Of a stretch of DNA of 40,290 bases, positions 1 to 40,063 are shown in pieces. The stretch's first letter is position 1; every line of letters starts with the position of its first letter. Source of the DNA: Candidatus Woesearchaeota archaeon (GTDB lineage Archaea > Nanobdellota > Nanobdellia > Pacearchaeales > GW2011-AR1); assembly GCA_964561665.1 (NCBI GenBank), contig CAZLQA010000001.1:1-40290 (forward strand). Reading direction: 5' to 3'. The notes beneath the pieces were generated by a model that saw only the letters and a list, made by a program, of their open reading frames with translations, ran no database searches and was not told the origin of the DNA. A program made the translations under genes and the position numbers.

Positions 1-1
1 C

Positions 2-1570
2 CCTTCCTCAGATTACGGCGATTTCGCGCTTCCCTGCTTTTTTCTTGCAAAGAAGCTAAGACTGCCTCCTCAAAAAATAGCCCTTGAGCTGAAAAATGAA
101 CTAACGGGAAAGTCAAAAATCTTTTCCTTCATCAGAGTCGACGGGGCTTATCTTAATTTTTTCATAAACAAGAAAGAGTTTGCGGAAAAAACAATAAAAA
201 GAATCCTAAAAGAGGGGGAAAATTACGGAAAAGAAAACATAGGAAAGGGAAAGAAAGTCCTGGTTGAGCATACAAGCATAAATCCAAATGCTTCCCCTCA
301 CGTCGGAAGGGCAAGAAATGCAATAATTGGAGACTCTTTGGTTAAAACTTTCAGATTCTTCAACTTCAAGCCTGAAGTTCATTATTATGTTAATGATGTT
401 TCAAAACAAATGGCAATGCTTGTGTTAGCCAATGCGGAAAACCTGAAATTTGAAGGATTATTAAAAAAGTACGCCGAGATGTCAAAAAAAGTGGAAAATT
501 CCAAGGAGACGGAAGAAAAAGTTTTTGAGATTCTTAACAAATTTGAATCAAATAATAAGAAAATTGCTGAGAAATTCAGGAAAATTACTAACATTGCAGT
601 TAAAGGGCAGAAAAAAATTCTTGCCAACTTGGGAATACACTATGATTTTTTTGATTATGAGTCAAAATACATGCATAAAACCGGAAAGATTATTGAAGAT
701 TTGAAAAAAACAAAAATGCTTTTCATGGATGAGAATGGAAGGTATGTCCTGGACCTGAAAGGCACTTCCGTTGAGGGAAAGATGAAATCGCCTGTCCTTG
801 TTCTAACGAGGAAGGATGGTACGGGGTTATATCCACTAAGGGATATTGTATACACCATAGAAAAAATCAAGAAATCAAAAGATAATCTTATTGTTCTTGG
901 AGAAGACCAAAAACTTTATTTCCAGCAAATCTCGGAAACATTAAAGATTTTAGGGTATAATTCTCCAAAAGCAGTTCATTATTCATTTATTCTACTGAAT
1001 GACGGCGGAAAATCAAAAAAGATGTCCACGAGAAAGGGGGACGTTGTTCTGCTTGAAGATTTCTTGACTGAAGCGGAAAAAAAATCAATGAAGAAAACAA
1101 AAAACAAGAAAATTGCAAGGGACGTAGGTATTGCGGCGGTGAAGTATTCTATTTTGAAAAATCACCCTAATAAAATGATAAGTTTTAACCTTGACGAAGC
1201 ACTGAACTTCGAGGGGGACACGGGGCCTTATCTTATGTACAGCTACGCAAGGGCATCAAGCATTTTAAGAAAGGCAAAAAATGGCTCTGGAAAAATTCCC
1301 GCGGAAAAAATAAGCGAAAAAGAATTTGAACTGATAAAAAAGCTTTCGCAGTTTCCGGAAATTATTTTAAGCTCTTACAAAACTCTTAATCCTTCCGCAA
1401 TTGCAAATTATTCCTACCAGCTCGCGCAGGTTTTCAATGAATTTTATCACGCAACAAAAGTCTTGGGTTCTGAAAACGAAAACTTCCTTCTGGCGCTGGT
1501 TCAGGCATTCAGAATTGTGCTTAAGAATTCCCTGAAACTTTTGGGAATTGAAGTTATTGAAAAAATGTAA
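2..1570 (+). CDS. argS: Arginyl-tRNA synthetase, 5' end runs off the window
   Basis: The frame of ORF 338..1570 stays open back to nt 2. The upstream translation ...KVLVEHTSINPNASPHVGRARNAIIGD carries a class-I HIGH-type motif. The C-terminal part (NYSYQLAQVFNEFYH) resembles the ArgRS anticodon-binding domain. Confidence 0.9.
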   Translation, partial: PSSDYGDFALPCFFLAKKLRLPPQKIALELKNELTGKSKIFSFIRVDGAYLNFFINKKEFAEKTIKRILKEGENYGKENIGKGKKVLVEHTSINPNASPHVGRARNAIIGDSLVKTFRFFNFKPEVHYYVNDVSKQMAMLVLANAENLKFEGLLKKYAEMSKKVENSKETEEKVFEILNKFESNNKKIAEKFRKITNIAVKGQKKILANLGIHYDFFDYESKYMHKTGKIIEDLKKTKMLFMDENGRYVLDLKGTSVEGKMKSPVLVLTRKDGTGLYPLRDIVYTIEKIKKSKDNLIVLGEDQKLYFQQISETLKILGYNSPKAVHYSFILLNDGGKSKKMSTRKGDVVLLEDFLTEAEKKSMKKTKNKKIARDVGIAAVKYSILKNHPNKMISFNLDEALNFEGDTGPYLMYSYARASSILRKAKNGSGKIPAEKISEKEFELIKKLSQFPEIILSSYKTLNPSAIANYSYQLAQVFNEFYHATKVLGSENENFLLALVQAFRIVLKNSLKLLGIEVIEKM

Positions 1571-6230: not shown

Positions 6231-6385
6231 GAGTCGACCTTGCTTGGAATTAATAGTTTAAATTTGTCCTCGCAAAGTCGCTCGGCTCATAATTTATGAA
6301 AAAATTAACAAAAAACCTGTTTTATGCTAACATTATTATCAATAAGCGAACGCAGTGAGCCTTTTGTATGACAAGCCTTGAAATC
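6231..6385 (+). repeat. Dispersed mosaic repeat, copy A
   Basis: It shares the exact 21-mer ggaattaatagtttaaatttg (6246-6266 = 14966-14986) and the exact 20-mer ataagcgaacgcagtgagcc (6342-6361 = 15119-15138) with copy B. The tail ttttgtatgacaag matches copy C. Confidence 0.8.
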
Positions 6386-7316: not shown

Positions 7317-7430
7317 TTTTTGTATTAATCATCTATTTCAAGTGATATTATCTGCAGTTTTTACATTAGAAATTTACATCAATATACGAACGACGAAGGA
7401 GTGAGCCATTTTGTATAATAAGTCAAAGCA
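7317..7430 (+). repeat. Dispersed mosaic repeat, copy C
   Basis: tttttgtattaatca..aagtgata.tatc.gc.gttttt matches copy D (9638-9683). The core aatatacgaacgacgaaggagtgagccat (7381-7409) is 28/29 identical to the reverse complement of 21944-21972 (copy F). Confidence 0.75.
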
Positions 7431-9637: not shown

Positions 9638-9760
9638 TTTTTGTATTAATCAATTCCTTAAGTGATAATATCCGCGGTTTTTGTATTAACAACTTACATC
9701 AATTAGCGAACGAGTGAAAAGTTATTCAGTGCTTGGCGAAGCGTATGCCTAATCGCTTTT
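9638..9760 (+). repeat. Dispersed mosaic repeat, copy D
   Basis: The left part matches copy C. The core is ..acatcaattagcgaacgagtgaaa. The right part agttattcagtgcttggcgaagcgtatgcctaatcgctt matches the 53-bp tandem unit at 16670-16785. Confidence 0.8.
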
Positions 9761-11331: not shown

Positions 11332-11357
11332 TTTTTGTTTAATTTCTTTTATTTTAA

Positions 11358-11495
11358 AAAGGCTCACCGTGTTCACATATTGATTTAACTATTAATATAA
11401 AACTAACTTATTTTATGACTAATGCAGGATTTGTGCTATCATCTCATTAATTGCGAGAATTTATTCGAGCACATTTAAAGTAAGCCGAAGGCGAA
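11358..11495 (-). repeat. Dispersed mosaic repeat, copy H (inverted orientation, right end truncated at the cstA stop)
   Basis: aaggctcaccgtgttcacatatt.. matches copy F (atggctcactcc..gttcgtatatt). ..cattaattgcgag and aagccgaaggcgaaccatttta match F (gaagccgagataaggcgaaccaatttta). Confidence 0.7.
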
Positions 11496-14910: not shown

Positions 14911-15185
14911 AAGAAGCAGTTTCTGTTTAAAGTGGTTTGCCTTATCTCTTCTCCCGACCCCGCTCGGAATTAATAGTTTAAATTTGCCATTCGCAAAGTC
15001 GCTCTACTCGCACCCGCACTCATTATTAACTAAAAATTGCCTCGTGCAAATGCTCGGCTCACAATTGATGAAAAATTAACTAATAGAAAAACAACTTTTA
15101 TATTAACAACCTTTACCGATAAGCGAACGCAGTGAGCCATCTCATTTAATAATTTAATAAAAATAAGTAAGTTCTAAACAAAGCC
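14911..15185 (+). repeat. Dispersed mosaic repeat, copy B (longest copy, contains an internal module duplication)
   Basis: It carries all the modules: left end aagcagtttctgtttaaagtggtttgcc, ggaattaatagtttaaatttg, tcgcaaagtcgctc / tcgtgcaaatgctcggctcacaattgatgaaaaattaac, ttttatattaacaa..ataagcgaacgcagtgagcc, and right end aaaataagtaagttctaaacaaagcc. Confidence 0.85.
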
Positions 15186-16639: not shown

Positions 16640-16790
16640 TTAAATTTAATCAAGCCTCTCGCTGTCGTTCGCTTATTGGTGAAGTTCTAGTTATTCAGTG
16701 TCTGCCGAAGCGTATGGCTAATCGCTTATTGGTAAAATCCTAGTTATTCAGTGTCTGCCGAAGCGTATGGCTAATCGCTTAATGATATAA
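16640..16790. repeat. Dispersed mosaic repeat, copy E, including a 53-bp tandem array (2.2 units, 16670-16785)
   Basis: The unit cgcttattggt[g/a]aa[g/a]t[t/c]ctagttattcagtgtctgccgaagcgtatggctaat starts at 16670, 16723 and 16776. It is preceded by cctctcgctgtcgttcgcttatt, an inverted version of the ..gcgaacgacg..gagtgagcc core. Confidence 0.8.
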
Positions 16791-19532: not shown

Positions 19533-20492
19533 ATGACGAGTGAAATTTGGACTGAAAAATACCGCCCGCAAAAATTTTCCGAGATGTTCGGGCAGGATGA
19601 AGTGATAAAAAGGGTTCACTCCCTCACAAATACGTTAAACATCCCCCATCTGCTTCTTGCAGGCCCCGCCGGAACGGGAAAGTCTACCCTTGCGCTGGTT
19701 ATTGTCAGGGAGCTGTACAGGGAAAGGTGGAAGGAAAACTTTCTTGAGCTTAATGCGAGCGATGAACGCGGGATTCAGGTTGTCAGGGAAAAGGTGAAAA
19801 CTTTCGCGAGGACAAAATCCCTCGGCAGTGTTCCCTTCAAGATAATTTTTATGGATGAGGCGGATGCCCTCACTCCTGAAGCCCAGCAGGCTCTAAGAAG
19901 AACCATGGAAAACTACTCCTCTACCTGCAGGTTCATTCTCTCGTGCAATTATTCAAGCAAGATAATAGACCCAATCCAATCGCGATGCATCCTTTTCAGG
20001 TTCAAGCTTTTGGAAAAAAAAGACGTGGAAAAGGTAATCAAGATAATTTCCGAGAAGGAAAAGCTGAACGTCAGTCCCGATGCGATGGAAATCATATACG
20101 AAGGCAGCGACGGGGACTGCAGAAAATGCATAAACATGCTGCAGTCAACGGCATCAATATCCCCTGTGATAACAAAAGAACTGGTGTCCACGATTCTTTC
20201 GGAAGCAAAGCCGCAGGACATAAGAACCGTGCTCGACTATGCAATATCAGGGGATTTTGAGAAGTCAAGGGAAAAGCTTTTCGACATAATGCTGAAGCAA
20301 AGCATATCTGGGCAGGAGATAATAAAATTCATCCAGAAAGAAATATGGAATCTCCCGGTGGAGCCAGAACTTAAAGTAAGGCTTACTGAAAAAACGGGCG
20401 AGGCGGAGTTCAGGATTATAGAGGGCTCTGACCCCTTTATTCAACTGCAGGCGCTGATTGCAAGTTTTGTTCTTGCAGGTTTGGGAAAATGA
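19533..20492 (+). CDS. rfcS: Replication factor C small subunit
   Basis: It has WTEKYRP (RFC box II), Walker A GPAGTGKST, DEAD-like FMDEADALT and the SRC motif (IQSRC). Confidence 0.95.
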   Translation: MTSEIWTEKYRPQKFSEMFGQDEVIKRVHSLTNTLNIPHLLLAGPAGTGKSTLALVIVRELYRERWKENFLELNASDERGIQVVREKVKTFARTKSLGSVPFKIIFMDEADALTPEAQQALRRTMENYSSTCRFILSCNYSSKIIDPIQSRCILFRFKLLEKKDVEKVIKIISEKEKLNVSPDAMEIIYEGSDGDCRKCINMLQSTASISPVITKELVSTILSEAKPQDIRTVLDYAISGDFEKSREKLFDIMLKQSISGQEIIKFIQKEIWNLPVEPELKVRLTEKTGEAEFRIIEGSDPFIQLQALIASFVLAGLGK

Positions 20493-20686: not shown

Positions 20687-21886
20687 ATGAACTGGACTGA
20701 AAAATACCGCCCTAAAATTTTTTCAGAAATTGTGGGGCAGGAAGAGGCAGTTGCAAAAGTTAAAAAATTCGTAGAGGATTTTCACTCCGGAAAATCCGCG
20801 AAAAGGAGGAAAAAAGCCCTTTTTCTTCATGGCTCACCCGGCACGGGAAAGACAACCATTGCATTTGCAGCTGCAAACGAGACAAACTCCGAGATTTTTG
20901 AATTGAACGCGAGCGATTTGAGAAATAAAATTAACCTGCAGGAAGTTTTAAGGCCCGCAGTTGAACAGCAGTCTCTCCTTAAAAAGAAAAAGATAATTTT
21001 AATCGATGAAGTTGACGGAATATCCGGTTTTTATGATAAGGGAGGTATTCTCGAGATTTTATCCCTTATAGAAGTTACTTCTTATCCAGTAATCATAACT
21101 GCAAACGACCCATGGGTTAAGAAGCTAAGCACTTTAAGAAAAAAAACAGAGATGATTAAGCTAAAGGAAATAAACTACAAAGTCATAAAGGATGTTCTCA
21201 TAGAAATTTTAAGAAAAGAAAATAAATTCCTTAACAATAATATCCTTACAGAAATCTCAATAAAGTCCCGCGGTGACTTGAGGGCTGCAATAAACGACTT
21301 GCAAAGGGAAGCCTCCCTGAAAAGCCTCGAAACCTCTCCCGTTTTGGATGAAAGGAACAAGGAAGGAGACATATTCAACGCGCTAAGAAGTGTATTCAAA
21401 GGAAAGCCAAGCAACGAAATTCTCGGGATTTTTGATTCGCTAAACATGGGAATTGACGAAGTGATGCTGTGGATTGAAAAGAACATTCCCTTGGAATATC
21501 ATGGAAAGGAATTGGAAAGGGCTTTCGATTTGCTGAGCAAGGCGGACGTTTTCAAGGGAAGAATATACAAGCAGCAATACTGGAGATTTTTGGTTTATGA
21601 AAACATATTTCTTAGTTATGGAATATCTTCCTCAAAAAATCCCTCGCGGGTTCCCCAGGGATTCACAAGCTACCAAAAACCCGACAGGATTCTTAAAATA
21701 TGGATAAATAATCAAAAAATCATCAGAAAAAAAGCAATCGCAGAAAAATACGCAAGATATGTTCACATAGGGAAAAAAAGAGCCGAGAGGGAATTCCCCA
21801 TGGTTGTGAAAATCCTGAAAAAGCCGGAAGTCCAGAAAGAAATAAAACTCAATGAAGAAGAGGTTGAGTATTTGAGGGAGATTTGA
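20687..21886 (+). CDS. rfcL: Replication factor C large subunit
   Basis: It has WTEKYRPK, Walker A GSPGTGKTT and Walker B ILIDEVDG. The 399-aa length and position directly after rfcS also fit. Confidence 0.9.
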   Translation: MNWTEKYRPKIFSEIVGQEEAVAKVKKFVEDFHSGKSAKRRKKALFLHGSPGTGKTTIAFAAANETNSEIFELNASDLRNKINLQEVLRPAVEQQSLLKKKKIILIDEVDGISGFYDKGGILEILSLIEVTSYPVIITANDPWVKKLSTLRKKTEMIKLKEINYKVIKDVLIEILRKENKFLNNNILTEISIKSRGDLRAAINDLQREASLKSLETSPVLDERNKEGDIFNALRSVFKGKPSNEILGIFDSLNMGIDEVMLWIEKNIPLEYHGKELERAFDLLSKADVFKGRIYKQQYWRFLVYENIFLSYGISSSKNPSRVPQGFTSYQKPDRILKIWINNQKIIRKKAIAEKYARYVHIGKKRAEREFPMVVKILKKPEVQKEIKLNEEEVEYLREI

Positions 21887-21897
21887 GAACAGCAATA

Positions 21898-22055
21898 TGG
21901 CTTTGTTAAAAAAATTCCAAATTGATTTGGTTTGTTAAAAAAAATGGCTCACTCCTCCGTCGTTCGTATATTAATAACAATTTTAATCCAAACCTAGTTA
22001 TTTTTTCATCAATTGTGAAGCCGAGATAAGGCGAACCAATTTTAAACAGAAACTC
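21898..22055 (-). repeat. Dispersed mosaic repeat, copy F (inverted orientation, both ends present)
   Basis: ggctttgttaaaaaaa.. is the inverted right end. atggctcactcctccgtcgttcgtatatt is the inverted core (28/29 to copy C). tagttattttttcatcaattgtgaagccgag is the inverse of ctcggctcacaattgatgaaaaattaacta. taaggcgaaccaattttaaacagaaac is the inverted left end of copy B. Confidence 0.8.
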
Positions 22056-22111
22056 TTATCAGACAAAATTACAATAATAAACTATTAAAACATCTCTCTC
22101 TATTCCCTATT

Positions 22112-22681
22112 ATGTCTTATGATATTCAGCTCGGAAGAAACAAGTCGGACAAGAAGCTGTTCGGGGAAAGGGGGTTTGTTTTCCTTGGAAAAAGCTATGT
22201 AAAAATGGGGCAGTATGATTCCCTGAGCAACAGGATTTTAATGGACATTTCAAGAAGCCACGTGGTTCTCGTCGCTGGAAAAAGAGGCTCCGGAAAATCA
22301 TACACCCTCGGCGTGATAGCGGAGGAGCTCTCAAATCTGGAAAAGGAAACAAGCCAAAACATCGCCTCTTTGTTTTTTGACACCATGGGAATTTATTGGA
22401 CGATGAAGTTCCAGAATGAAAAAGACAAGGACTTGCTTTACGAGTGGGGGCTGAAGCCAAAAACGCTGCCTGTAAAAATTTTCGTGCCTTTCGGGCATTA
22501 CCAGTCCTACGTTGAAAAAAGAATTCCCGTTGACGAGCCTTTTGCCCTAGATGTCACTGAATTAGAGGCGGAAGATTGGATTATAACTTTCGGATTGGAC
22601 ATGATTCATCCCGTATCTGTCTTGATTGAAAGAATAACAAGCCGCTTGAAAAAAGAGGGCAGATTTACAATAAGAGATTGA
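22112..22681 (+). CDS. HerA/DUF87-type P-loop ATPase, N-terminal segment (ends at an in-frame TGA)
   Basis: Walker A is present (VAGKRGSGKSYTLG). The ORF ends ..GRFTIRD-TGA at 22679-22681. Confidence 0.75.
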   Translation: MSYDIQLGRNKSDKKLFGERGFVFLGKSYVKMGQYDSLSNRILMDISRSHVVLVAGKRGSGKSYTLGVIAEELSNLEKETSQNIASLFFDTMGIYWTMKFQNEKDKDLLYEWGLKPKTLPVKIFVPFGHYQSYVEKRIPVDEPFALDVTELEAEDWIITFGLDMIHPVSVLIERITSRLKKEGRFTIRD

Positions 22682-22741: not shown

Positions 22742-23422
22742 TTGTTTGAAGCCGCGGAAACGTGGGGAATTTTCTCGGAGAAGGCGGAGGAATCCACAAG
22801 AATAGAGGAGTTGGTTTCGGGAGGAAAAACAAGCGTTTTGGACTTGAGTGTTTACAATTCGATAGGGAGCTTCAACGTCCGCGCGCTCGTGATAAGCCTT
22901 GTCTCAAGAAAAATCTTCAACCAAAGAATGAATGCAAGAAAAAAAGAGGAAGTAAAGTCGGTTTCGGGCGGTTTTGATTTTTCTGCATCCTCTGAAAAAA
23001 AGGAAAGCCCACTCGTATGGATTTTTATCGACGAAGCCCATGAGTTTCTTCCTTTGAACGAAAAAACAGCCGCAACAGACGCGCTCGTGCAGTTGCTAAG
23101 AGAAGGAAGGCAGCCGGGAGTTTCAGTTGTTCTTGCAACGCAGCAGCCCGGGCAGATTCACAGGGACGTGATGACTCAGTCGGACATTGTAATCTCTCAC
23201 AGAGTCACAAGCCAGCAGGACCTGGAAGCCCTGAACCAGATAATGCAAAGTTATCTTATCGAAAACATAAAAAAATACATGGACGAACTCCCAGATATAA
23301 GAGGCTCTGCGATAATACTCGACGACAACTCGGAGAGGATTTACCCCGTGAAGATACGCCCGAGATTCACATGGCACGGGGGCGAGGCGCCTACCGCAAT
23401 AAACGCTGAAAAAAGGATTTAA
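22742..23422 (+). CDS. HerA/DUF87-type P-loop ATPase, C-terminal segment, in the same frame as 22112..22681
   Basis: The frame is open from 22682 (IKNIEDDGKSSVETKSAAAGLFEAAETWGIF..). Walker B is VWIFIDEAHEF, followed by ATQQPG and ISHRVTS motifs. There is no in-frame ATG or SD near the 5' end; the tracked start is a TTG. Confidence 0.75.
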   Translation: MFEAAETWGIFSEKAEESTRIEELVSGGKTSVLDLSVYNSIGSFNVRALVISLVSRKIFNQRMNARKKEEVKSVSGGFDFSASSEKKESPLVWIFIDEAHEFLPLNEKTAATDALVQLLREGRQPGVSVVLATQQPGQIHRDVMTQSDIVISHRVTSQQDLEALNQIMQSYLIENIKKYMDELPDIRGSAIILDDNSERIYPVKIRPRFTWHGGEAPTAINAEKRI

Positions 23423-23533: not shown

Positions 23534-24019
23534 ATGAAAAACTTGATGAGAAAATTGGGTGTGGGCGCATTGATAACAGCAGGAGCCCTGTATTTGGGCG
23601 CGTGTGGCGACAATGACCATTCTTCAATGAGATTAAAGGGAAGAGATTATGTGGGAACTATAGAATTGGTAATCCAGGAAAAATTGCCTGATGGAAGGGA
23701 ATACAAGATTTTCAAATTAACTCCTGAAAACGTGCGCGAGCATCCTTATGCAATTGTTTCAATAGAAAATGGAGAGCAAAAAAGGTTTGTAACTCCCTAT
23801 GGAATAGGTCCTGTAAAAATAAAATGTGAACCTCAGGGAACTCAGATGGATTACAGTTGCAATTTTGATCCAGAAAACATTTTCATTAAAAGAGAAGATG
23901 CTCTTGGACGAGAAATAAAATTGTATTTGGATGAAAATAAAGGAAAAATAATGGGAATAAGCGATAGAATAACTAATGTTTTAAATACCTCTGCCCCACA
24001 TTTGTGGTTAAGTAAGTAA
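23534..24019 (+). CDS. Predicted secreted lipoprotein (161 aa)
   Basis: It has a signal peptide with a lipobox-like LYLGAC-GD (MKNLMRKLGVGALITAGALYLGACGDN). I recognise no family. Confidence 0.6.
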   Translation: MKNLMRKLGVGALITAGALYLGACGDNDHSSMRLKGRDYVGTIELVIQEKLPDGREYKIFKLTPENVREHPYAIVSIENGEQKRFVTPYGIGPVKIKCEPQGTQMDYSCNFDPENIFIKREDALGREIKLYLDENKGKIMGISDRITNVLNTSAPHLWLSK

Positions 24020-24217: not shown

Positions 24218-24508
24218 ATGAGATTAGAAGATATTAAACTGCCTGAAACGGCTACCGAAAAAGAACTTCTTGGGTTAGGAGCAATAAAAAAAGGAGATAT
24301 TTTCTTTTATGAAGACGGAATTAATGGGGTAACTGCAGGATGGAGAAGAGGAAGTGATGGCACTTATTACCTTTCCTATAAAGGAGTAGTTTCACAACCC
24401 AATCTAGAAAGTTCCGGAAGTCCAACAGGAAAGGAGATATATCCTCTAAGAAAACCTCCTGAATTCAAAGAAGACCAAAGGGAGCCAACAAAAAAACGCC
24501 CATTTTAA
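24218..24508 (+). CDS. Small soluble protein, paralog 1 of a tandem triplet (96 aa)
   Basis: IKLPETATEKELLGLGAIKKGDIFFYEDGINGVTAGWRR... There is a 1-nt gap to the previous gene. Confidence 0.55.
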   Translation: MRLEDIKLPETATEKELLGLGAIKKGDIFFYEDGINGVTAGWRRGSDGTYYLSYKGVVSQPNLESSGSPTGKEIYPLRKPPEFKEDQREPTKKRPF

Positions 24509-24509
24509 A

Positions 24510-24722
24510 ATGAACCTTGAAAAATCCTCAGAAGAAAGCATGGAAAAAGTTCCCAGAACAGCAACGGCAAGAGACCTTTTAAAATTAGGAGCAAGAATAA
24601 TAAATGTCTTAGGTGATAGAGCATATCAGGATTCTAAAACATACGCGATAGTTGTTTTTAAAAAAATTAAAGGTGGGGTTTACGAAAGGATTTTTGTCGG
24701 AACTCCAAGCCATCATGACTAA
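24510..24722 (+). CDS. Small soluble protein, paralog 2 of the tandem triplet (70 aa)
   Basis: KVPRTATARDLLKLGARIINVLGDRAYQDSKTYAIVVFKK... There is a 1-nt gap to paralog 1. Confidence 0.55.
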   Translation: MNLEKSSEESMEKVPRTATARDLLKLGARIINVLGDRAYQDSKTYAIVVFKKIKGGVYERIFVGTPSHHD

Positions 24723-24743: not shown

Positions 24744-24995
24744 ATGAGCTCAAAAAGTTTGGAAAAAACAAGCAAATCTTCCAGAGTGGTTAAATTGCCT
24801 CAAATATCCACAGAAGAACAACTTCTTGGATTAGGCGCTGTAAGAGACGGTTACGGAATGAAATATGAAAATCCTGCTTTAGGTGTGATTGTATATTGGA
24901 GAAGATTATTAAATGAAAGAAATGAAAGTTTAGAAGCCACAAACTTATATGTATTTTCTCATCAAGAACCTATGAAAAAAAGCACTCTCCACTAA
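24744..24995 (+). CDS. Small soluble protein, paralog 3 of the tandem triplet (83 aa)
   Basis: VKLPQISTEEQLLGLGAVRDGYGMKYENPALGVIVYWRR... DNA-level similarity to paralog 1 is visible (caacttcttggattaggcgct vs gaacttcttgggttaggagca). Confidence 0.55.
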   Translation: MSSKSLEKTSKSSRVVKLPQISTEEQLLGLGAVRDGYGMKYENPALGVIVYWRRLLNERNESLEATNLYVFSHQEPMKKSTLH

Positions 24996-25889
24996 CTATA
25001 AAATCTTCAAGTCAACCCTTACCCTGAATTTGTAAGGCGCAATTTCACCCGCTTTTTTGAAATTAAGGATTTTAATTTTCTTTTTTGATTTTTTTGCTTC
25101 ATCAAGAATTCTTTCCCTAACAGAATCAATCTCGTCATCCTTTGCAAAATCATAGTAAAAAATCCTTGTCCCTTTTTTGCTTAAGAAAAAAGCCTCTTTA
25201 AGAAAACTTTCCTTCAACTGGGGACGGGGCATAACAATCACGTCGTATTTTTTTGGGATTTCCTGCAAGTTTAATCGGCTCGCTAACACTCGCCTATTTC
25301 TTTGATTCTTGATGTTAACCATCTGATTTGTTTTTTTATCAACATAATTCTTACCAATCTGCGAATGTGAATAAGCGGCTAATCTCTTAACACCTCCCTG
25401 AATCACCTGAACCTTATCCTCAACTTTATTCAGCTTAGAATTAAGCTTCGCATACCTGCCCGCTTCTCTATTAATCTCGATGCTTGTAACTTTCCCCGCA
25501 GGCGAATTTCTTGCAATGACAATTCCATAAGGATTTATACCCGAAAACATCACAAGCACGTTCTCGTTTCTTTTTATTTTTCCGGAGATTTCCGCCCTCT
25601 CGCTGCTTAACCTAGGGGAGAAGTATGTTGAATCCACATTAAACCTGAAAATGCATCCGTTTTCCCTGTAAAGAGCTTCTTTTGTCTTAACACCAAGAAT
25701 CCACCTCGTTTTCTGCTTTCTCAAACGTCCTTTAAATCGCGAGGTTTTCTCAAGAACTGTCCTTACAGACTTATACTGCCTAAGGATTTTTTCGGCTATT
25801 TTTTTCTTTTCATTTGCCTTTGATTCTCTTGGAAATTTTAAAATTGCAATATTTCCCATAATGTCAATTCCCGATGGTTTTTTGCCCAT
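24996..25889 (-). CDS. Trm5/Taw2-like (Met-10+) tRNA methyltransferase carrying a ~43-aa internal insertion
   Basis: It has IDIMGNIAILKF, FRFNVDSTYFSPRLSSER, VLVMFSGINPYGI (SAM motif I region) and DVIVMPRP (the NLP-type motif IV position). Confidence 0.8.
   Translation of the reverse strand: MGKKPSGIDIMGNIAILKFPRESKANEKKKIAEKILRQYKSVRTVLEKTSRFKGRLRKQKTRWILGVKTKEALYRENGCIFRFNVDSTYFSPRLSSERAEISGKIKRNENVLVMFSGINPYGIVIARNSPAGKVTSIEINREAGRYAKLNSKLNKVEDKVQVIQGGVKRLAAYSHSQIGKNYVDKKTNQMVNIKNQRNRRVLASRLNLQEIPKKYDVIVMPRPQLKESFLKEAFFLSKKGTRIFYYDFAKDDEIDSVRERILDEAKKSKKKIKILNFKKAGEIAPYKFRVRVDLKIL
25254..25382 (+). repeat. Repeat-family-like sequence inserted in frame inside the Trm5-like gene
   Basis: On the + strand, ..cggctcgctaacactcgcc..tttgattcttgatgttaacc..tgtttttttatcaacataattcttaccaatctgcgaatgtgaataagcgg aligns at roughly 70 percent by eye with copies A and B (ggctca..atttatgaaaaaattaac..tgttttatgctaacattattatcaataagcgaacgcagtgagcc). 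Confidence 0.55.
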
Positions 25890-25965: not shown

Positions 25966-26072
25966 TGGAATTATTGGCACAGAACAATCGCATTCATTCA
26001 CAATCAATATTGCTGCTAATTTAATGAAAAAATTATTTAATTTTTATGCAATCTGCGAGTGAAACGAGCTGC
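25966..26072 (+). repeat. Dispersed mosaic repeat, copy I (short, diverged)
   Basis: tggaattattgg..caatcgcattcattcacaatc..gctaatttaatgaaaaaattattt..ttttatgcaatctgcgagtgaaacgagc parallels ggaattaatag..tcgcaaag..ggctcataatttatgaaaaaattaac..ttttatgctaac..aagcgaacgcagtgagc. Confidence 0.55.
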
Positions 26073-26110
26073 ATTTCTTAACAGCAAAAAACAAGATAAA
26101 ACTTTATAAA

Positions 26111-32113: not shown

Positions 32114-33232
32114 ATGAAGCACAAAATTGAGCTAAAACCTGCTTTTGCAGAAAGAATGGAATCCCTTCTCGGGAAAAAAGGTTTTGAAGAGTATATCTTA
32201 TTTCTGGAAAAACCGTTGATGAAATCAATCCGCGCAAACACCCTGAAAATATCCGTAAATGAGCTCAAAAAAAGGCTTGAAAAAAAATCCTGGGTTTTAA
32301 AGCAGCCTTTCAGAAAATTCCCTGAGGTGATGATTGTTGAAGGGAAAATTGCCGGTAAAAACAAAGAGGATAATGATGATAATTATAAAGGCAACGTTGT
32401 AAAAAATTTCCATAAGTTAGTTAATGCAAATAAAGATGGGGGCGAACGAAGTGAACTTTTGGGAGGGAATAATCGAGCGAAGCAAGGCAAAATAATAGAC
32501 TTGGAACCCGGAGAACTTGGAAGAAGCCTGGAGCATCTTCTCGGATACTATTATGTTCAGGACATTTCAAGCATGCTCCCTGTTATGGCACTAAACCCCG
32601 CGAAAAACGAATCGGTGGTTGACTTATGCGCCTCTCCCGGAAGCAAGACAACCCAAATCTCAGCCATGATGAACAACCTTGGAGTTTTAATAGCAAACGA
32701 CGTGAAACTTGAAAGAATAAAAATACTCGCTTCAAATCTTGAGCGCTGCGGAGCCTCAAATGTGATAATGACAAAAAACTACGGGGATGTTTTGTGCAAA
32801 AGAATGAGGAGGATAGGATTCCAAGCAGACAAAATACTTATTGACGCCCCGTGTTCCGGAGAAGGAACGATAAGAACATCCACTATGACTGCAAAGATGT
32901 GGAACGCAAACAGAATTTACAGCCTGTCGGTGATACAAAAAAATCTTCTTGCGGGAGCCGTGGAAATCCTGAAAAAAAACGGCGAGATAATTTACTCAAC
33001 ATGCACCCACACTCCGGAGGAAAACGAGGAAGTCGTAGATTGTATATTAAATAATTTTAAGAATATAAAAGTTGAAAAGCCTTTGCTCCCAAAAGAACTA
33101 AAGGCAAATCCGGGAGTTTTGGAATGGCAGGGGAAATCTTATTTAAAAGAAGTAAAAAAATGCGTGAGAATATACCCCCAAGACAACAACACCGAGGGTT
33201 TTTTCATAGCAAAACTGAGGAAAATAGGATGA
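32114..33232 (+). CDS. NOL1/NOP2/Sun-family RNA cytosine-C5 methyltransferase carrying a ~50-aa internal insertion
   Basis: It has IRANTLKIS, HLLGYYYVQDISSMLP, DLCASPGSKTT, IDAPCSGEGT and YSTCT motifs. I prefer the start MKHKIELKP.. at 32114. The stop overlaps the next ATG (ATGA). Confidence 0.85.
   Translation: MKHKIELKPAFAERMESLLGKKGFEEYILFLEKPLMKSIRANTLKISVNELKKRLEKKSWVLKQPFRKFPEVMIVEGKIAGKNKEDNDDNYKGNVVKNFHKLVNANKDGGERSELLGGNNRAKQGKIIDLEPGELGRSLEHLLGYYYVQDISSMLPVMALNPAKNESVVDLCASPGSKTTQISAMMNNLGVLIANDVKLERIKILASNLERCGASNVIMTKNYGDVLCKRMRRIGFQADKILIDAPCSGEGTIRTSTMTAKMWNANRIYSLSVIQKNLLAGAVEILKKNGEIIYSTCTHTPEENEEVVDCILNNFKNIKVEKPLLPKELKANPGVLEWQGKSYLKEVKKCVRIYPQDNNTEGFFIAKLRKIG
32351..32503 (+). 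repeat. Repeat-family-like sequence inserted in frame inside the Nop2/Sun gene
   Basis: The exact 13-mer gcgaacgaagtga (32442-32454) equals 40007-40019 of copy G. About 35 nt downstream it is followed by gcgaagc, as in copy D (gcgaacgagtgaaa..30 nt..gcgaagc). The segment encodes GKNKEDNDDNYKGNVVKNFHKLVNANKDGGERSELLGGNNRAKQGKIID. Confidence 0.5.
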
Positions 33233-39868: not shown

Positions 39869-40063
39869 AACAAGCAGTTTCTTTTTGAAATGTCTCGCCT
39901 CTCGGCTTCGCAATTAATGAAAGAATTAACTAACTAAAAACCAACTTGTCTTGTACTAACATTTAAAGGAAAGGTTAAGCGAAGGAAACCTTGGTGTCCT
40001 CGCTATGCGAACGAAGTGAGCATTTTTCAACAATCAAAAATAAGTATTTTCTAAACAGGACTG
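39869..40063 (+). repeat. Dispersed mosaic repeat, copy G (both ends present)
   Basis: The left end is aacaagcagtttctttttgaaatg. It also carries ctcggcttcgcaattaatgaaagaattaactaac, the core tatgcgaacgaagtgagca, and the right end aaaaataagtattttctaaacaggactg. The right end reverse-complemented (cagtcctgtttagaaaat) resembles the left end (cagtttctttttgaaatg). Confidence 0.8.

Follow-up and report, generated by a model that had tools for sequence, protein, structure and literature searches.

That selfish repeats can sit in frame within essential genes is a textbook curiosity, and nearly all known cases come from Rickettsia and a small number of other bacteria. Here we describe a candidate archaeal case, found in a 40,290-nucleotide stretch of contig CAZLQA010000001.1 from a Candidatus Woesearchaeota archaeon (the whole of this stretch is called the window below), where the gene for a tRNA methyltransferase of the Trm5/Tyw2 family carries 43 extra codons. 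We think it probable that these 43 residues are translated from the degenerate copy of a mobile repeat, small, non-coding and resembling a MITE (miniature inverted-repeat transposable element), the family of which is scattered through the intergenic regions of the same genome.

The nearest described parallel is provided by the Rickettsia palindromic elements (RPEs). Like the window family, RPEs are non-coding, multi-copy palindromic sequences of ~100-150 bp that occur both between genes and in frame within unrelated housekeeping genes (PMC10969869); like it, they add a peptide segment while the host open reading frame (ORF) stays open, and they are missing from some orthologues. The likeness claimed is one of mode of action only, not of sequence, and RPEs inhabit an alphaproteobacterium whereas the present host is archaeal (DPANN). 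Whereas 44 RPE insertions were counted in R. conorii (Ogata et al. 2000, as summarised in PMC10969869), the window family has been met in two to three host genes so far. What the window family appears to add is that a single loop of one enzyme is occupied time and again throughout a clade, by heavily decayed copies that lie in both orientations.

Bacterial MITEs that form in-frame fusions (ERIC, BOX, the Coxiella QMITE and cyanobacterial MITEs; PMC10969869, PMC5896051, PMC3184786) share with the window family their small size, lack of autonomy, inverted ends, mainly intergenic location and occasional translation within a host protein. Terminal inverted repeats, target-site duplications and a partner insertion sequence (IS) are often defined for them, whereas neither a target-site duplication nor a partner transposase was found for the window family. 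As regards archaea, a 2024 review assigns MITEs to Sulfolobus, Halobacterium, Haloquadratum and a few others only, and in-frame MITE fusions and RPEs to bacteria (PMC10969869). The MITEs, small mobile repeats and palindrome-associated transposable elements (PATEs) of Sulfolobus, Halobacterium and Haloquadratum resemble the window family in being transposase-free mobile repeats, here of ~110-500 bp (PMC3119063); some of them are mobilised by unknown mechanisms and have strong target preferences. The passages of that source that we searched place the Haloquadratum elements between genes or nested in other mobile elements, and describe no translated in-frame copies in conserved enzymes. Compared by description, these archaeal elements have no evident sequence similarity to the window family. 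The literature we searched reports in-frame MITE or RPE insertions for bacteria only and nothing for Pacearchaeota or DPANN archaea, in keeping with the initial annotation of the window, which had taken such an insertion to be new for archaea of this type.

A Trm5-family gene with an additional loop segment

The window (G+C 33-46%) codes for archaeal housekeeping functions, including class I and class II aminoacyl-tRNA synthetases, Cdc48, a family B DNA polymerase, FEN1, RFC subunits and two tRNAs, and the closest relatives of its proteins come from metagenome-assembled genomes labelled Pacearchaeota, Nanoarchaeota or Woesearchaeota (DPANN archaea). The host gene (24996..25889, minus strand) encodes a 297-aa Trm5/Tyw2-family tRNA methyltransferase without a D1 domain. 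Its protein matches PF02475 (TRM5/TYW2 methyltransferase domain; 1.7e-32) and PF25133 (TYW2 N-terminal domain; 1.9e-9), both above the curated cut-offs; phmmer against the Protein Data Bank (PDB) returns Trm5b and Trm5a; and an AlphaFold2 model with 106 homologues in the alignment (mean predicted local distance difference test score, pLDDT, 92.9) finds 5HJI, 5WT1, 5YAC and 2ZZN (Trm5a, Trm5b and aTrm5) by Foldseek at E<=1e-21 and TMq 0.72-0.77. Profile and predicted fold thus both place the gene in the Trm5/Tyw2 family. With archaeal Trm5a, Trm5b, aTrm5 and Taw2 (PDB 5HJI, 5WT1, 5YAC, 2ZZN, 3A25) the protein has in common the D2 + D3 (Rossmann) architecture and the motifs that bind S-adenosylmethionine (SAM); it differs from them in lacking the N-terminal D1 domain and in possessing the 43-residue insert. 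A further difference lies in motif IV, which reads VIVMPRP as opposed to IIMNLPK in Trm5b, so that MPRP stands in place of NLPK; MPRP is kept in all orthologues. In motif III (25374-25391, the region of codons 165-168) the window protein has Gly (QGGVKR) where most orthologues have Asp or Asn (QGD[IV]KK); a few orthologues have Gly as well.

The insert occupies exactly codons 170-212 (25254..25382, minus strand; LAAYSHSQIGKNYVDKKTNQMVNIKNQRNRRVLASRLNLQEIP), as delimited by structural and orthologue comparison. Aligned to Trm5b of P. abyssi (5YAC), host residues 5-163 and 209-296 correspond to chain residues 97-252 and 256-344, which leaves ~42 residues unmatched, and comparison with Trm5a leaves the same segment over. 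Its site is the short link from the helix that follows motif III (..QG[DG]VK[KR]..) to the motif-IV strand (YDVIVMPRP). In the window the insert is preceded by ..VQVIQGGVKR (motif III and a short helix) and followed by KKYDVIVMPRP (the motif-IV strand), and the initial annotation was therefore correct in placing about 43 extra residues between the acidic strand and the motif-IV strand. It was also correct in describing the reading frame as preserved: the window frame passes through the insert with zero stops, and the frame is open at all 80 orthologous loci that we collected from species-representative genomes (1.25 Mb in total; L-numbers below label such loci or contigs, and WIN the window) and in all of the 120 listed database homologues.

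Presence of the segment varies greatly. At the insert site, 118 close homologues (54-65% identity) have <=15 aa in 54 cases, 16-25 aa in 14 and >=26 aa (maximum 71) in 50, with extremely variable sequences. Nearly half (46%) of these orthologues do without the insert, as do the solved Trm5 structures, so that the possibility that all orthologues carry it, raised at the outset, fails.

How does the enzyme accommodate the segment? AlphaFold2 predicts a helix (167-175), a hairpin (180-184/190-193), a second helix (199-205) and a strand (208-211), with pLDDT 85-93; the Trm5 fold is kept in the model and the insert forms an added helix/hairpin unit. In a Rossmann fold, helix-to-strand connections lie on the face opposite the SAM/substrate pocket. 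Because such connections face away from the pocket, the insert is probably a tolerated surface addition, the face being taken here from textbook topology. One orthologue, L053 (match at 3-788), has an extra short insertion, ..LKDAPSGVPQRGKVE.., just ahead of the motif-III strand, at a site that differs from that of the main insert.

The intergenic repeats and their relation to the Trm5 inserts

Repeat finding, inspection and MAFFT alignment define eight intergenic copies of one repeat within the 40 kb, four of full length and four partial, with nhmmer E-values of about 1e-13 to 1e-26; the repeat family to which the initial annotation had assigned copies A and B is hence real. Full-length copies are A (6242-6373, plus strand; nhmmer E=4e-24), B (15015-15149, plus, accompanied by partial 5' modules in tandem at 14914-15010), C (21934-22060, minus) and D (39871-40032, plus, with an extra internal hairpin module, GGTTAAGCGAAGGAAACC). 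The 3' part is present in E (7336-7418, plus), F (9654-9730, plus) and G (11355-11435, minus), and the remaining copy, H (25983-26083, plus), was identified by nhmmer (E=7e-13), the other seven by repeat finding and nhmmer. All eight copies are also found by a hidden Markov model (HMM) of foreign inserts, that is, Trm5 inserts from other genomes (E=0.0031 for A, 0.011 for H); G is found by an HMM of the 3' module as well, and D matches the insert of L026 at 20/20 nt.

The element measures ~125-160 nt and consists of a 5' module (AATTTGYCCTCGC..GCTCGGCTCACAATTGATGAAAAA), a variable A/T-rich middle and a sharply conserved 3' module, beyond which lies a T-rich flank. The consensus of the left module is AATTTG(Y)CCTCGC...GCTC(GGCTCAC)AATTGATGA and that of the right-end (3') core ATCAAT-NN-GCGAACG-N-AGTGAGCC; the ends can also be written GGCTCAC..TTCGC / AATTTGCCTCGC. 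Inverted ends are formed by GGCTCAC...GTGAGCC (7 bp) and by AATTTGC.CTC.C...GCGAGGCAAT, and the flanks are A/T-rich (AAATT on the left, a T-run and TAAC on the right). With a longest open frame of <=147 nt, the intergenic copies are small and without coding capacity. For PATEs derived from IS200/IS605 one looks for subterminal hairpins, an absence of terminal inverted repeats and insertion beside a fixed 4-5-nt target; here variable hairpins adjoin the 3' module in many copies and a TTAAC-like flank recurs, and neither TnpA nor TnpB was seen.

Two further observations concern the placement of the repeats. Copies A, B, C, E and H, five of the intergenic eight, lie upstream of a gene such that the reverse-complemented element is co-directional with the gene and its 5' module is nearest the start codon; a preference in insertion or a role close to the promoter may lie behind this arrangement. 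Copy H is situated ~95 nt upstream of the Trm5 start codon, so that one element lies upstream of this gene and one within its coding sequence, both on the plus strand. In addition, a 53-nt unit, TCGCTTATTGGT...GCCGAAGCGTATGGCTAA, occurs twice in tandem at 16669-16774, preceded by an antisense sequence resembling the 3' module (CGTTCGCTTATTGGT), and a third time at 9700-9752, directly after copy F; this unit is perhaps a further module of the repeat system.

The evidence that ties these repeats to the Trm5 loop comes chiefly from orthologues. When an HMM built from the window's intergenic copies only was run against the 1.25 Mb of orthologous loci, the top three matches all fell at the Trm5 insert site (L071, E=5.1e-5; L041, 0.003; L043, 0.019). 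An HMM of the 3' module, based on 20 intergenic copies from the window and from metagenomes, matches the inserts of L071 (1e-6), L041 (6.8e-6), L168 (1.7e-5) and L003 (2.8e-4); for that of L167, significance (1.2e-6) is reached only with full7, a combined HMM into which foreign Trm5 inserts were built. By blastn-short, the L071 insert and an intergenic metagenome copy align over 36 nt and are 92% identical there (E=1.8e-9). Searching in the opposite direction gives a consistent picture: the HMM made from the inserts of L071 and L041, run against the window, has the eight intergenic copies plus the window insert as nine of its 11 best matches, all nine in one orientation and on the same HMM segment, the four lowest-ranked at E 0.06-2.1. 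An HMM of the 5' module, which aligned poorly, recovered the window's own copies only, and blastn-short against a database of copies was used in its place.

For the window insert itself, a combined family HMM (four intergenic copies and three foreign Trm5 inserts, with the window insert excluded) matches 25332-25393 on the plus strand at E=5e-4. This match corresponds to a 3' (right-end) module within the insert, TTTTTTTATCAACATAATTCTTACCAATCTGCGAATGTGAATAAGCGGC (25332..25393, plus), for which the foreign-insert HMM gives E=0.032 and the intergenic-only HMM E=0.16. The matching strand is opposite to the gene, with the element's forward orientation on the plus strand, as had been claimed. At the peptide level the insert has SHSQIG/SLRSQID and NLQE[IV]P in common with foreign inserts. 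Because foreign inserts match the intergenic copies, the reciprocal search concurs and the combined HMM reaches E=5e-4, the window insert appears to belong, as a diverged member, to a lineage of inserts whose homology to the repeat family is demonstrable: an old, decayed element, as it seems, recognisable only through its better-preserved orthologues. The idea that a member of a repeat family lies in frame here, in the manner of an RPE, is thus supported by way of the orthologous inserts. Indeed, as with RPEs, we observe a multi-copy family, an in-frame copy missing from some orthologues, and DNA homology between coding inserts and intergenic copies, which for the window insert is seen via the family HMM only.

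Direct comparison of the insert with the window's own repeats gives a weaker signal. In a single, pre-specified semi-global alignment test, with 1798 other window segments as the null, the insert scores p=0.0056 against copy A, 0.0033 against H, 0.031 against C, 0.14 against B and 0.0067 for the sum, which is suggestive but not decisive. An nhmmer search (--max) of 25254-25382 with intergenic-only HMMs, the check put forward by the initial annotation, did not reach significance: E was 0.16 with eight copies, 1.6 with another set and 6.7 with A and B only, and a model of the four full copies gave no match. Searching the window with orthologous insert peptides (tblastn) produced marginal matches only (E 0.03-0.09), two on copy H and one on copy F.

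Which frames of the element are read is informative in its own right. Translated by hand, the left end (GGCTCACTGCGTTCGCTTATTGAT) has just two open readings, GSLRSLID and AHCVRLL, and the right end (ATCAATAAGCGAACGCAGTGAGCC) just one, SISERSE. Orthologous inserts display GSLRSQID, AHSRSQIN or AHLCSQIN on their N side, where the window has YSHSQIG (one codon shorter), and SDNERA, SERSERA or KSDERSERA on their C side. These peptide motifs recur because only one or two frames per element end are free of stop codons, and that stop-free frames alone survive is what one would expect if selection on the host ORF had filtered the element copies.

Turning to the history of the site, presence or absence of the insert changes ~30 times on a neighbour-joining tree of 119 proteins (28-34 times on bootstrap trees, 39 with a shuffled trait), from which the site would seem very labile, the tree being weak. 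The C-terminal half of the window insert (..NLQE[IV]P) is common to L002/P0008, so the window insert should be older than that split. Between L041 and L071 the two ends of the insert are identical at 27/29 and 24/24 nt, in host genes that are 72% identical overall and 54% at third positions, which indicates nucleotide-level constraint, gene conversion or more recent acquisition. If element ends are indeed retained at the nucleotide level inside coding DNA, a mechanism of insertion specific to its target, or gene conversion from copies in the genome, might be responsible. Orientation differs among loci: the 3' module is antisense at the N side (reverse orientation) in WIN, L041, L071, L003 and L168, whereas the L026 insert is in sense orientation (the 20/20 nt match to copy D, E=2.9e-7) and that of L170 starts with a sense 5' module, matching three independent intergenic copies at 13/13 nt, and has a sense-frame right end at its close. 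Both orientations at one loop imply at least two independent insertions, or else inversion in situ.

A scenario that would bring these observations together runs as follows. An element would have transposed into the permissive helix-to-strand connection of the Rossmann fold, and an in-frame, stop-free copy would have been kept because it did not destroy the enzyme; the insert would later have been inherited, mutated, shortened or deleted many times, with at least two independent insertions or an in-situ inversion along the way. The window copy would be an old one, common to the L002/P0008 lineage.

Further hosts and surrounding genes

The Trm5 loop is not the only coding location at which traces of the family are found. 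The window's NOL1/NOP2/Sun (RsmB/F) gene (NSUN; 32114-33232) contains a 53-codon insert at 32342..32500 (plus strand), ~50 aa of which are extra relative to PDB 1IXK; it is hypervariable and missing in 22 of 35 syntenic orthologues. At 32442 this insert holds the repeat core GCGAACGAAGTGAAC, a 15-mer that elsewhere occurs only in copies A, B and D, and reads it in the only open right-end frame (..GERSEL..). Global similarity of the insert to the repeats is weak (p ~0.03-0.05). Taken together with the structural and orthologue comparisons, the core suggests that the NSUN insert is probably a second in-frame element remnant in the window.

Beyond the window, 86 loci were obtained when metagenomes were scanned for the 3' core. 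In ~20 low-GC metagenome contigs the match extends past the search seed, and the open frames around most of these copies are short, which places them between genes; one contig carries two. Because ~20 low-GC contigs harbour intergenic copies, the repeat family appears to be widespread. Two metagenome copies are located within Trm5 orthologues, and one inside an ORF for Elp3, a radical SAM/GNAT tRNA-modification enzyme (L094, 1980-3740, minus strand, 587 aa; a low-GC metagenome contig). Compared with PDB 5L7J, the L094 Elp3 has two in-frame extra segments, at 2232-2498 and 2619-2711, and it is there that the element ends are located: the first segment reads NLGSLRSQIDG... (the left-end frame of the element), and the second is bounded by inverted AATTTGCGCTCAC...GCGAGGCAAT. 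A scan of 443,000 aa of long ORFs for element-end peptides found no hosts beyond Trm5, NSUN, Elp3 and one ORF of L099, apart from one likely chance match in L135, and coding insertions are hence not rampant near Trm5 loci. In L099 the peptide KSISERSEPP, a sense-frame right end, is encoded at 780-818 in a low-complexity linker of a 360-aa ORF (1-1080, minus strand) without a Pfam match.

Several features of the surrounding genes deserve separate mention. The 3' end of the Trm5 gene adjoins a cluster of paralogous small proteins, encoded by three tandem ORFs (24218-24508, 24510-24722 and 24744-24995; 96, 70 and 83 aa) with a common N-terminal motif, LP..T..ELLGLGA. Also beside Trm5, a HerA/DUF87-like ATPase is represented in the window by two ORFs (22112-22681 and 22742-23422; 189 and 226 aa) and in syntenic relatives by a single gene of 437-438 aa (L168, L169) or an intein-bearing gene of 806 aa (L167, L170); the split in the window may be due to a frameshift, pseudogene formation or a disrupted site. 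Two adjacent paralogues of RFC-type AAA+ clamp loaders (19533-20492 and 20687-21886) have in common a 53-nt stretch, 81% identical, in the region of the WTEKYRP motif. Finally, a sub-threshold Rfam match to the SAM-III (SMK box) riboswitch at 23852-23942 (plus strand; 24 bits, where the gathering score is 45; E=0.23) is most likely due to chance.

Competing explanations and implications

Several observations weigh against reading the insert as a copy of a mobile element. The intergenic-only nhmmer searches are non-significant on the window insert, whose assignment rests on transitive homology, and blastn of the insert against the window returns poly-T words only. Among the ~64 inserts in 118 homologues, ~10 to 20 keep recognisable element ends (six loci at the DNA level), and the inserts that do not could have other origins. 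With regard to movement, no transposase domain was detected in the 20 window ORFs and no viral-contig match was obtained; a target-site duplication could not be defined, and no closely related pair of empty and filled sites was found; in the 80 other genomes the +/-10 kb around Trm5 is free of intergenic copies; and the inverted ends are short and imperfect, the elements folding no better than shuffles (z -1.0 to +0.8). A search for a partner IS, which covered ~2 Mb, detected none, and the genes between the two copies in L160 are ordinary. It is from the distribution of its copies that we infer that the element is mobile.

If the element did not move by itself, what else might have placed the same sequence between genes and inside them? 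Conceivably, the shared sequence is a functional nucleic-acid motif, such as a protein-binding site or part of a small RNA, that selection maintains as a nucleotide sequence and that recombination or gene conversion has spread, and the Trm5 loop harbours one instance. Such a motif would account for the invariance of the core GCGAAC..AGTGAGC across copies from very different contigs, for insert ends that are far better conserved between L041 and L071 than the genes around them, and for the placement of five of the eight window copies upstream of a gene in the same relative orientation. It is harder to reconcile with the presence of the sequence in three ORFs that are unrelated and, at the Trm5 loop, in both orientations. 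A structured small RNA gene was considered and rejected, given that no copy has an Rfam match (at the gathering score or at E<=1), that the RNAalifold consensus reaches -1.2 kcal/mol with 0/4 predicted pairs compensatory, and that neither conserved secondary structure, covariation nor folding stability in excess of shuffles is seen. Overall, we regard a functional motif as unlikely. The insert might instead be an ordinary lineage-specific, fast-evolving, low-complexity expansion of the loop that resembles the repeats by chance or composition. Most orthologous inserts are indeed K/N/S-rich without detectable similarity to the repeats, the NSUN site has similar hypervariable inserts with little repeat signal, and the non-significant intergenic-only search points the same way. 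However, chance does not readily produce matches of E=1e-6 to 1.8e-9 between foreign inserts and intergenic copies, nor the concentration of the top three matches from 1.25 Mb in the Trm5 loop, nor a reciprocal search in which all eight intergenic copies come back; and by its peptide motifs and the family HMM the window insert is a homologue of the foreign inserts. This makes a loop expansion very unlikely, and we consider it largely refuted.

A different kind of explanation would have the segment removed, from RNA as a bulge-helix-bulge (BHB) intron or from protein as a mini-intein, leaving a mature enzyme without it. Archaeal mRNAs with BHB introns exist, the two ends of the mRNA-sense insert can pair, and the neighbouring HerA-like gene has an intein in some relatives. 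If the segment were spliced out there would be no requirement for it to remain in frame, yet all of the 80 genome loci and the 120 listed database homologues, 200 orthologous sequences altogether, are frame-open, which led us to reject a frame-independent intron on the evidence of the frames, the BHB motif and its geometry lying outside this test. An intein was rejected because 43 aa is far too short (>=130 aa being the criterion) and because Cys/Ser/Thr...His-Asn junction residues are absent. We give an intervening sequence scarcely any credence.

A translated, decayed repeat copy therefore remains our preferred account of the 43 residues. A broader proposal can be made with rather less than even confidence: DPANN archaea of the Pacearchaeota type may harbour widespread selfish palindromic elements, similar to RPEs in their action, that repeatedly enter the same permissive loops in enzymes that modify RNA (Trm5, an NSUN-type m5C methyltransferase, Elp3) in either orientation, are translated, and supply raw material for new, possibly folded protein segments. 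If the reading offered here is true, it would be the first archaeal example of protein evolution of this sort and would carry the phenomenon into a second domain of life. A new repeat family with sharply conserved ends would be defined, and the finding would explain part of the puzzling length variation and of the "unalignable" insertions in conserved DPANN proteins, with a caution to annotators and structure predictors that such segments may be element-derived. Above all, a single loop would offer a dated series of insert states (empty, fresh, decayed and shortened) in which the birth of protein from non-coding DNA could be traced.

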